A DNA stretch of 64,000 nucleotides from Lingula anatina. Its lineage: Eukaryota > Animalia > Brachiopoda. The DNA lies in NCBI GenBank assembly GCA_051362555.1, contig CM120646.1, forward strand, positions 8,246,001 through 8,310,000. Direction: 5' to 3'. Under the pieces are notes generated by a model. It saw only the letters and a program-made list of their open reading frames with translations. It did not search any database and had not been told where the DNA came from. Positions 28,587-31,500 of this stretch are shown here, one piece after another. The translations under genes were made by a program, and so were the position numbers. Each line of letters starts with the position of its first letter. Position 1 is the stretch's first letter.

Positions 28587-31500
28587 TTATATATAATACT
28601 CCTTCTTTGTTGACACTTCAGGCTGCCGCGTTGCTCCACGTGCAATGGCCTCATCAGCTTGATTCGATTCTTCTGCTCCTTTGGCCTCGTATGTTTTGTA
28701 CTCTCCCTTTTCTCGCCTCCAGTATCGATAGACCAGGAAGGCTACTAGGATCAGTATCACAAAGACTATCGCCAAGACACCTAGAATAGATATAAAAATA
28801 TGATCAGTCTGGTATAAATAATAAACACAATAACAAATGACACCGTTTTCTTAAACCCATTTCTAAAAGTTTTTTTATAGGTTCGATTTCAGCACTGCAT
28901 GAAGTCATAAAGTACAAAGAGAGACGTTCCAACTGAGCAAATTTACATGGAATTTAACAGGTGGCTTAAACACAGAGAGATGAATTTTCTGTATGAATAA
29001 ATTATAATCATTATAAATTTTATCTCAGTATATGAAATTTTACCTAGAAAATATTTGTAACTAAATAACTCAAAATTTTACATAAACACAATGCAGTATT
29101 TCACAAAGAAAATTTATAAACAGCCTGGCAGTATTATGGCATTATAGAATGAAATATCAGGGAAGAAAATAAAAATACAGAGCAGGTAAGTGAGAGGAAA
29201 AAATCAAGCTTATGTTTCACAAAATGCAGTGTTCTTTAGTGAGAAAAATATTTAAGGTGTACGTGAAGATGATGAATGTCTAAGAAAAATGCACCTCTAG
29301 TAAACAACAAGACTTCATTTGGCATGCAGTTAAGATTAATCTTGTTAGTCCACATAACAGAAAGCAGAACATGGAAGGGCAGACAACAACAAGTATTGTA
29401 TCTCATAAAGGGAATTAGAGTAAAGTACAATAAGAAGCCTATATCCAACCATCCCTGAAATATTAAACACCCAATAATGACAGAAAAGACAAAAAAGAAA
29501 ATGGTGTCGCAAAAAACAACTATTTCTTATATTACAGCAGGCCAGTAGCCAGCAGCATCAAAAGGAGGGTACTTTTTCCGAAAAAGTGGACCTTTTACAA
29601 TGAAACCTTTGTGTACCTAGCTCAAATTTTAACCAGAATGGACCTTTTCCTGACAAAAAGGCTACATGCATGTACAGGTTCATCTACATGTCAAATTTGT
29701 CAAGAATAAAAGTGGTTCAAAAGATAGATAGATATATATATATCTGGGCCAAATGGCTACAAATTATGTGCAAACAATTTCATTGGACCTCCGTTTTTAA
29801 TAGTAAAAAGTTTTCATTTAAGTTTCTGAACATGTAATTTACTTGTGACCAAGTCTGTCAGAGTGGACGAATGAAACAGTCTAGAGGTCAAACAAATGTG
29901 TGGATCTATCATAAATGAGAACATTTTACTACTGCATGAAGTTACTCCCCTGAAAGTCACAACATCTATCCATGTTGCCCTCAAATTAGCACAATTCTAT
30001 TAACAAGACAGGAAAAGAACAGAACAGGTCACTGCATATTAGAGAATGTTCTAAAGGAAATGAAGGAAGAAAGAAATCTTGTTGTCCATCACCAATGAAA
30101 ACACTATTCATATAAAATACCTCCCATACTGGAGGCTTAAAATGCACCTGGTGTTAGAATTGGCCTGTAGTAGAAAGAGTTTAATTCAAAGAAAGGAAAG
30201 AGCTTCCCAACACCAGTACAATAACAATGGCTTTAGTTTGTACCTCCTATCACAGCACTCTGGGCCTGGTTACTCTCCAAATACTGTGATGGAATAAACT
30301 CTCTCTTCACTCCTCTATCAGGGCGTAGTTCCTCTGGCTGGTCTTCATCTAGAACTTCTTCAAATCCACACATGCTCTCATTGAAGTCACCTAATAAAAG
30401 GAAGGTGGTGAGCCAACATAAAAGCATGCCAACACATAAACAAAAGAAGTATATAGCACAGGCACTGCATGGTGTCATGGTAACTATGGTGATATCATGG
30501 CAACCCAGTTCCTTGGTAACCATGATGGTATCATAGCAATGCAGTGTTCCTTGATTAATATGATGCTGGTGTTTTTCAAAAGGATTATGTTGTTACTAAA
30601 CAATCATGATGTTTTTTCCCACAAAAAAAAAATCATCATTTCTCAGACTGCAAAAGACCTGCCTGCCTTTTCATGCAATGGGGATGCATTTCGAAAAGCC
30701 TCTGAAAACAAACAACATGCATGTCTTCATGCACACAAACCCATGCACATTCCAACATATTTCAGCAACTTATGTCTTGTACCTCCTATTAGAACTTGAT
30801 TAGCAATATGTATTTTGTTTTTTGCAAAATTATAACTTGGATCTGCTGTTGGAGGCGGCTCCTTGGTTGGTCTGTACTCTGGTGGTTCAGGAGGTGGTAA
30901 AATCTCCTCTAACCCACATCTACTCTCTTTGAAATCACCTTAGTTGCACAACAAAACCAGGGGTTACATGTTCTTTGAAATTTACAGTAATAGAAGTTCA
31001 TACAGCCATTCTAATTTCAATAAAACATTTGTTTGGCCAACAAAGTCATTCGACAAACTCATCCATTGTAGCCAAAACAATTAATTCAACATGATAAAAT
31101 ATTTACATTAAATAGAAGGCCTGCTATGAATAACAACAAATCTCCAAGTGTTATCTAAACAGTTTATGTTCAGACAGTGATAGTATCCAAATGATGAAAG
31201 CAACTTCATACTTACTTGCTTTAGGGAACAACTGAATCCAGTTTGGTCTTGGATCCCTAAAAGCTTCTTTTATTGGATAAATGGTGTCAAACTGCATGTG
31301 GTAAATACAGCCTTCAAATCCCTCCCCAACAGGTGTGGAGGCTGAAATAATAATAATAATAATAATAATAATAATAATAATAATAATAATAATAATGCTT
31401 ATTCAGCCAACTGAATATGTATTAAAAATATGCATAATCAGTAATTACTTTGCTATCCCAGGTGTGGAATATTCACTTTTAGTGTTAAATGCCTGTAGTG

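Follow-up and report, generated by a model that had tools for sequence, protein, structure and literature searches.

Evidence for an either-or stalk-exon switch in neurexin IV of the brachiopod Lingula anatina and other lophotrochozoans

Septate and paranodal junctions have proteins of the neurexin IV/Caspr family at their core, and in invertebrates a single gene serves the epithelial barrier as well as neural functions. In the fly these two roles are divided by one exon switch, which lies in the discoidin domain near the N-terminus of Nrx-IV. As described in two accounts, exons 3 and 4 of the Drosophila gene are mutually exclusive ectodomain exons, exon 3 being used in glia and exon 4 in neurons; the exon 3 form serves septate junctions and depends on HOW and Cdk12, the exon 4 form binds Wrapper, and the switch site is given there as the “extracellular domain” or as “exons 3 and 4” (PMC3245913, PMC11893892). 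Splicing of the juxtamembrane stalk has been described for other adhesion proteins: in CADM1, ALCAM and UNC5B, stalk exons govern shedding, and acidic clusters and O-glycans block it (PMC5385562, PMC12480741). In human CNTNAP2 (Caspr2), a further report states that ADAM10/17 cut at 79 and 96 residues from the end of the protein, and that the distal cut is blocked by an acid substitution and likewise by proline (PMC10904759).

The neurexin IV gene of Lingula anatina resembles Drosophila Nrx-IV in that a member of the same family uses two apparently mutually exclusive ectodomain exons, but the fly pair is located near the N-terminus and the Lingula pair at the stalk. A tblastn search with the Lingula protein and eight homologues revealed no duplicate of Lingula exons 2-4, which include the discoidin exons, so that the Lingula switch differs from that between fly exons 3 and 4. 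Alternative splicing at the juxtamembrane stalk is shared with CADM1, ALCAM and UNC5B, where short cassettes are included or skipped, whereas Lingula swaps two homologous exons of ~150 nt, each of which, unlike those cassettes, encodes a cysteine of the domain and the first part of the membrane helix. Vertebrate CNTNAP2 belongs to the orthologous family and has its ADAM10/17 sites inside the segment encoded by the Lingula exons, but CNTNAP stalk sequences are unlike either exon, and no switch was seen among the vertebrate proteins compared; an intron apparently divides the vertebrate stalk, as genomic open reading frames P0138, P0210 and P0249 start matching mid-stalk. Tandem mutually exclusive exons are an already known class of mechanism, and the novelty is a switch in a well-studied family: in the full texts searched, mostly outside subscription journals, a stalk switch is nowhere described for neurexin IV/Caspr proteins, and the one in Lingula is apparently new, although MetazExp, a splicing database, may list it without a name.

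The window, by which we mean the whole 64-kb stretch of L. anatina DNA analysed, contains the neurexin-4 coding span at 28587..45899 on the minus strand, in 25 exons in the RefSeq model. Its product equals L. anatina neurexin-4 (XP_013388250.1) except for residue 415, which is Thr in the window and Ser in the RefSeq protein (exon 38899-38738, minus strand). Pfam matches to F5_F8_type_C, Laminin_G and EGF fall on exons that follow the neurexin IV/Caspr (CNTNAP) family layout, given as Discoidin, LamG, LamG, EGF, fibrinogen-like, LamG, EGF, LamG, one membrane helix and a short tail (PMC10084454); the fibrinogen-like part has no Pfam match and is nonetheless alignable to orthologues. The C-terminal region is 37-52% identical to 55 other protein matches, many of them named neurexin-4. 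Exon domain order, database name and RefSeq match all agree with the assignment to neurexin IV that an earlier note had made from the letters of the DNA. Upstream of the gene lies a tRNA-His(GTG) (48185-48256, minus strand), and a 486-codon open frame at 57935-59395 (plus strand) has no Pfam match.

Two alternative stalk exons, A and B, both open, with AG acceptors, in phase 1-1 and on the minus strand like the rest of the gene, sit between two constitutive exons; all four are defined by sequence and reads. Upstream, exon 23 (31216..31341) encodes the end of LamG4 with its GFxGC cysteine (C1195) and has the donor CAA/GTAAGT (the slash marks the exon-intron border); downstream, the last coding exon (28587..28780) encodes the membrane helix and the cytoplasmic tail up to the stop codon. 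Exon A (30783..30938, 156 nt) is Pro-rich, makes the minor form and is absent from the RefSeq protein, and exon B (30244..30390, 147 nt) is acidic, makes the major form and corresponds to RefSeq exon 24 (residues 1227-1274). The two had been read as homologous exons with identical donors, and this is borne out: the peptides align globally with a BLOSUM62 score of 77 versus -26 ± 10 in 5000 shuffles (maximum 14), the DNA scores 73 versus 18 ± 9 in 2000 shuffles (maximum 54), and both have the 13-nt donor context ATAGGAG/GTACAA, an identity made less special by exon 9 of neurexin-4, which also ends in AG/GTACAA. B is indeed acidic or charged (12 Asp/Glu versus 8 in A); of the label Pro/Thr-rich once given to A, the first half stands (10 Pro) and the second does not, Ser and Thr together numbering 4 in either exon. 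The reading frame is kept if A and B are both included, so that a frameshift could not enforce the choice between them, and frameshift and decay is ruled out as the enforcer of exclusion.

RNA from eight of nine listed runs (X3 was left out) of three studies, amounting to 6-30% of each run, was mapped to positions 28300-31342, with mates counted separately and a junction reported only with at least 3 reads at 2 starts within one run. All four junctions predicted from the sequence are present at the exact coordinates: 405 reads join 31216 to 30390 and 481 join 30244 to 28780 (886 for B over the eight runs), while 14 join 31216 to 30938 and 14 join 30783 to 28780, so that entry into and exit from A are balanced and A totals 28 of 914. 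Few reads had been expected from 30783 to 30390, and no A-to-B junction, nor any skipping both exons, is among those listed in the eight runs, at a threshold of 3 reads and with only 28 A junctions, such that some A-B splicing could be hidden among junctions with fewer than 3 reads per run. These junctions and two nemertean isoform pairs support the mutually exclusive use of A and B, and we are confident that splicing of the two exons is either-or.

The share of A differs among runs. Over X1, X2, X4, X5, X6, X7, X8 and X9, A has 0, 0, 9, 4, 12, 0, 2 and 1 reads and B has 190, 135, 19, 8, 154, 115, 151 and 114, giving A shares of 0/190 (X1), 0/135 (X2), 0/115 (X7), 1/115 (X9), 2/153 (X8), 12/166 (X6), 9/28 (X4) and 4/12 (X5), that is, about one third in X4 and X5, where reads are few, and zero in three runs. 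Within one study X4 and X6 differ (9/28 versus 12/166, Fisher p 0.0007, for reads that are non-independent), and one study alone supplies 25 of the 28 A reads, so that the A ratio is confounded with study. It could be argued that A is a leftover, spliced by leak and without a role in Lingula, as its junctions are at zero in three of the eight runs and at ~1% in two more, and its acceptor has a poor pyrimidine tract. However, A is intact, accounts for about a third of the junctions in two runs, carries synonymous changes at both variants listed in the reads (4 of 5 listed in B are synonymous), and is nearer than B to the stalks of annelids, nemerteans and flatworms (Tubulanus X2 105 versus 71, Platynereis 96 versus 65), which makes a mere leftover very improbable. 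Neither an exon that is never spliced, nor decay in relatives, nor routine inclusion of both exons was seen. A tally over relatives, in which 55 scored higher with A and 40 with B, with 1 tie, was discarded for its redundant rows and 7 wrongly picked segments.

Low intron coverage flanks A (30952-31155 and 30442-30747; X4, X5, X6, X8, X9), as from pre-mRNA or retained introns, and in these runs unspliced RNA beside A reaches a depth similar to that of A itself. A short secreted form made by read-through of the A donor was considered and is unsupported, low intron coverage being its sole trace. In the B-D intron, which leads from B to the last coding exon, a short interspersed repeat (29560-29660) draws reads of both strands with many differing loose ends. 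The runs, all under one species label, also sort into groups, each set apart from the window by fixed differences, which would point to divergent populations or cryptic species; these differences are dense in the 3' UTR (28300-28600) and almost all synonymous within coding exons.

Comparison with orthologues points to the same exon pair in other phyla, both in nemertean isoforms that differ at the stalk and in annelid-like loci with tandem copies. Two of 15 pairs of related proteins differ in the stalk segment alone, Lineus longissimus X1/X2 and Tubulanus polymorphus X2/X1, each RefSeq isoform (an automatic model) carrying one stalk copy; Littorina and Mytilus isoforms differ outside this segment, and mollusc proteins have one stalk type each (a statement on proteins only, the two mollusc genomic pieces being too short). 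A query with exon B alone matched solely the Lingula protein. Metagenome contigs scanned for the gene yielded 46 loci, of which 7 are spliced transcripts and 39 are genomic; a stalk exon is present in 30 of the genomic pieces. Two tandem stalk copies with AG/GT ends and phase 1-1 are present in L008, L009, L012, L014 and L046, which amount to four lineages, since L012 and L014 are close relatives, and a single copy, followed through to the membrane exon with no second one, is present in L016, L018, L021, L037 and L045; the one- versus two-copy count rests on these 10 loci, the remaining 20 of 30 ending before the deciding point. All 10 match Platynereis best among 20 named proteins and are therefore called annelid-like, the contigs likely deriving from worms of the annelid group. 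The first copy of each of the five two-copy loci shows a Pro-rich RPTP pattern, nearly so in Lingula A and Tubulanus X2, and beyond the arginine the second copy differs from it. The comparison of L012 with L014 gives a dN/dS of 0.056 for first copies and 0.10 for second copies, the latter value indicating, on these sequences, that the second copy too is under purifying selection. Stalk forms are of near equal length across species (47-52 residues).

A trivial explanation of the pair would be an assembly that placed two haplotypes side by side, and Lingula samples are strongly polymorphic. Against this, A and B are far too divergent for alleles, the reads join both alike to the same flanking exons and an A/B-type pair recurs in other phyla, so that reads and orthologues already refute this reading, to which we give practically no weight. 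We consider the expressed and selected either-or stalk switch in neurexin IV to be real in three lophotrochozoan phyla, and it is probable that the choice between A and B is regulated and under selection.

Whether one ancient duplication rather than several gave rise to these pairs appears evenly balanced from the sequences. In a tree of the exon built from 34 rows and 51 columns, with 21 of its 31 inner branches unresolved, brachiopod, nemertean and flatworm exons separate from those of annelids and molluscs (88/96), the two Lineus copies group together (93/75) and Lingula B is placed, with weak support, beside Tubulanus X1 (80/69). AU tests rejected none of four arrangements, among them a clade of all second copies with Tubulanus X1 (p 0.14), a Lingula A+B clade (p 0.37) and a Tubulanus X1+X2 clade (p 0.42). 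The Pro-rich copy comes first in Lingula and in each of the five two-copy loci; this fixed order favors a single duplication after which the exon starts became homogenised, while the likeness of copies within species favors repeated ones. Independent duplication in the brachiopod, in each nemertean and in annelids, with pairs that are convergent, would be compatible with either of the functions discussed below. It is favored by the first 15 residues, in which copies are more alike within species than across phyla (Lineus, Tubulanus, Lingula, annelids), by the clustering of the Lineus copies and the common donor of Lingula A and B, by the AU tests, which leave the Lingula and Tubulanus pairs as possible clades, and by the single copy in mollusc proteins and five annelid-like loci. 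Besides the fixed order, the weak grouping of Lingula B with Tubulanus X1 and the non-rejection of a clade of second copies with that exon speak against it, and gene conversion or the fit to a common LamG4 could homogenise exon starts; we regard repeated duplication as a serious possibility, though somewhat short of an even one.

None of the locks looked for that would prevent double use (frameshift and decay, a too-short intron, competing RNA pairing) was found, which leaves membership of the splicing pattern unaffected. The middle intron measures 392 nt in Lingula and 392-1088 nt across loci, the Lingula A-B intron folds no better than shuffles (z 0.17), and no pairing element is shared, conserved intron blocks being confined to the close pair L012/L014. 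A steric block by a branch point near the A donor is unsupported, the AG-free zone before B spanning 72 nt of the 392-nt intron. The same intron holds an imperfect hairpin with 25-nt arms (30484-30536, 72%). With the usual hard locks absent, the choice would fall to splicing factors. The pyrimidine tract is better at the B acceptor than at that of A, by which B may be the default exon. Four TGCATG, which we take to be an RBFOX-type motif, lie in the first 110 nt of the A-B intron (30672..30747, minus strand) and are candidate binding sites from the motif count (4 versus 0.73 expected downstream of A, p ~0.008, TGCATG being one of four motifs tried); 22 other neurexin-4 introns have 0-1 copies each and the B-D intron 2. 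Bound at such a position, RBFOX proteins, which act in neurons and muscle, promote use of the exon upstream of them and repress the next one, and FGFR2 IIIb/IIIc and C. elegans egl-15 5A/5B are RBFOX-controlled mutually exclusive pairs with UGCAUG between the duplicated exons. Lingula is similar in having the motif between paired exons, but as a cluster in one species, which is not conserved in the annelid-like two-copy loci (0-1 per middle intron in 5 of 5). An RBFOX-type factor on this cluster would favor A and repress B, and we put forward such control in Lingula tentatively.

In their donors, all seven first copies lack a G at +5, which all five single copies have. As a marker of alternative exons the weak donor is poor evidence, 4 of 24 Lingula donors lacking +5 G, all after an exonic AG. 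The AG-free zones ahead of the second copy are long in L012:3389-3730 (342 nt), L014:3115-3508 (394 nt) and L046:1158-1360 (203 nt), those of the other stalk acceptors checked being 14-97 nt, and suggest distant branch points in these three loci. The middle intron L046:392-1360 also contains five ACTAAY, presumably a HOW/QKI-type motif, versus 0.77 expected, one of them joined directly to TGCATG.

An AlphaFold2 model of residues 1041-1338 in the B form (46-row alignment, mean pLDDT 86) has a LamG fold, with neurexin LNS domains as nearest solved structures. Exon B covers model residues 187-234 and provides the last short strand with a cysteine, a linker of ~32 residues and the start of the membrane helix; residues 192-225 have no secondary structure and falling confidence, and the helix begins at 226. 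The stalk cysteine is conserved, like its partner in GFxGC, in at least 90% of rows, and the same pair closes LamG1-3, so we infer a disulfide between the two. The B-form model and the conserved cysteine pair fit the earlier reading of this exon as the source of the final LamG4 cysteine and the start of the membrane segment. As each copy would complete LamG4 and begin the membrane helix, one would be needed and two redundant. Exchange of A for B replaces ~40 residues outside the membrane, polyproline followed by a basic stretch in A and acidic in B: the 17 residues after the LamG4 cysteine include 6 Pro and 4 acidic residues in A and 2 Pro and 8 acidic residues in B, the net charge of the linker is -2 in A and -6 in B, an N-glycosylation sequon occurs in B only, and the final 20 residues before the membrane are similar in charge.

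On balance we favor, by analogy with known stalks, a one-exon-only switch, probably set by cell type, that probably alters how easily ADAM-type proteases shed the ectodomain. Acidic B would then be the shed-resistant default for stable junctions, and A the form for another cell type. In a CNTNAP2-like protein (P0136) both ADAM10/17 sites, at 79 and 96 residues from the end, fall between the LamG4 cysteine and the membrane helix. However, the charge difference between A and B is distal to the membrane, and as the distal CNTNAP2 cut is blocked by acid or by proline, Lingula A and B could both resist there; that shedding is the main effect of the switch is therefore put no higher than possible. 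A regulated switch might instead act on geometry, exchanging a stiff polyproline stalk for a flexible acidic one, with shedding unchanged, and so determine how high and at what angle the ectodomain stands in septate junctions or at neuron-glia contacts, or how it pairs with contactin in cis. The greatest difference between A and B, in the 17 residues after the LamG4 cysteine, lies far from the membrane, an RPxP pattern is retained in the first copy of all five annelid-like two-copy loci and in Tubulanus X2, and A- and B-type forms are near equal in length in all species, as expected for such a role, but the B-form model has the linker at low confidence only. We consider an effect on geometry rather unlikely as the main one, with a change of stiffness or ectodomain height nearly as likely as one of shedding.

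That three lophotrochozoan phyla have a selected switch other than that of the fly suggests more than one origin for isoform splitting in neurexin IV, and functional tuning of the stalk, commonly regarded as a passive linker. The natural A and B variants allow one to ask if Caspr shedding is ancient, and presence or absence of the stalk pair offers a rare genomic character for Lophotrochozoa. In the most far-reaching scenario, which we think unlikely, the switch would be an ancient lophotrochozoan one of more than 500 My, which brachiopods, nemerteans and many annelids retained while molluscs and one group of annelids lost it, and would split a septate-junction barrier form from a neural, sheddable form. 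The glia/neuron logic of the fly would then have evolved independently at the other end of the ectodomain, at the cleavage site of human CNTNAP2.

A second exon of the Lingula gene is duplicated as well. The first-half exon of LamG1 in RefSeq (exon 5, 40668..40877, minus strand) has an unannotated partner at 41424..41678 (minus strand, 255 nt, 31-33% identity), which is open, in phase 1-1, has AG/GT ends with a strong donor, a basic N-terminal extension of 21 residues and a CxxC. The duplicate matches Pfam Laminin_G_2 with E 0.0019, below the curated cut-off, and 96 of 97 long homologues are nearer to the RefSeq LamG1 copy. From its sequence the LamG1 pair is a candidate second mutually exclusive pair and, if the ancient-switch scenario is true, up to four forms of neurexin IV would exist in Lingula. 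Copies of GCATG are found downstream of both LamG1 exons.
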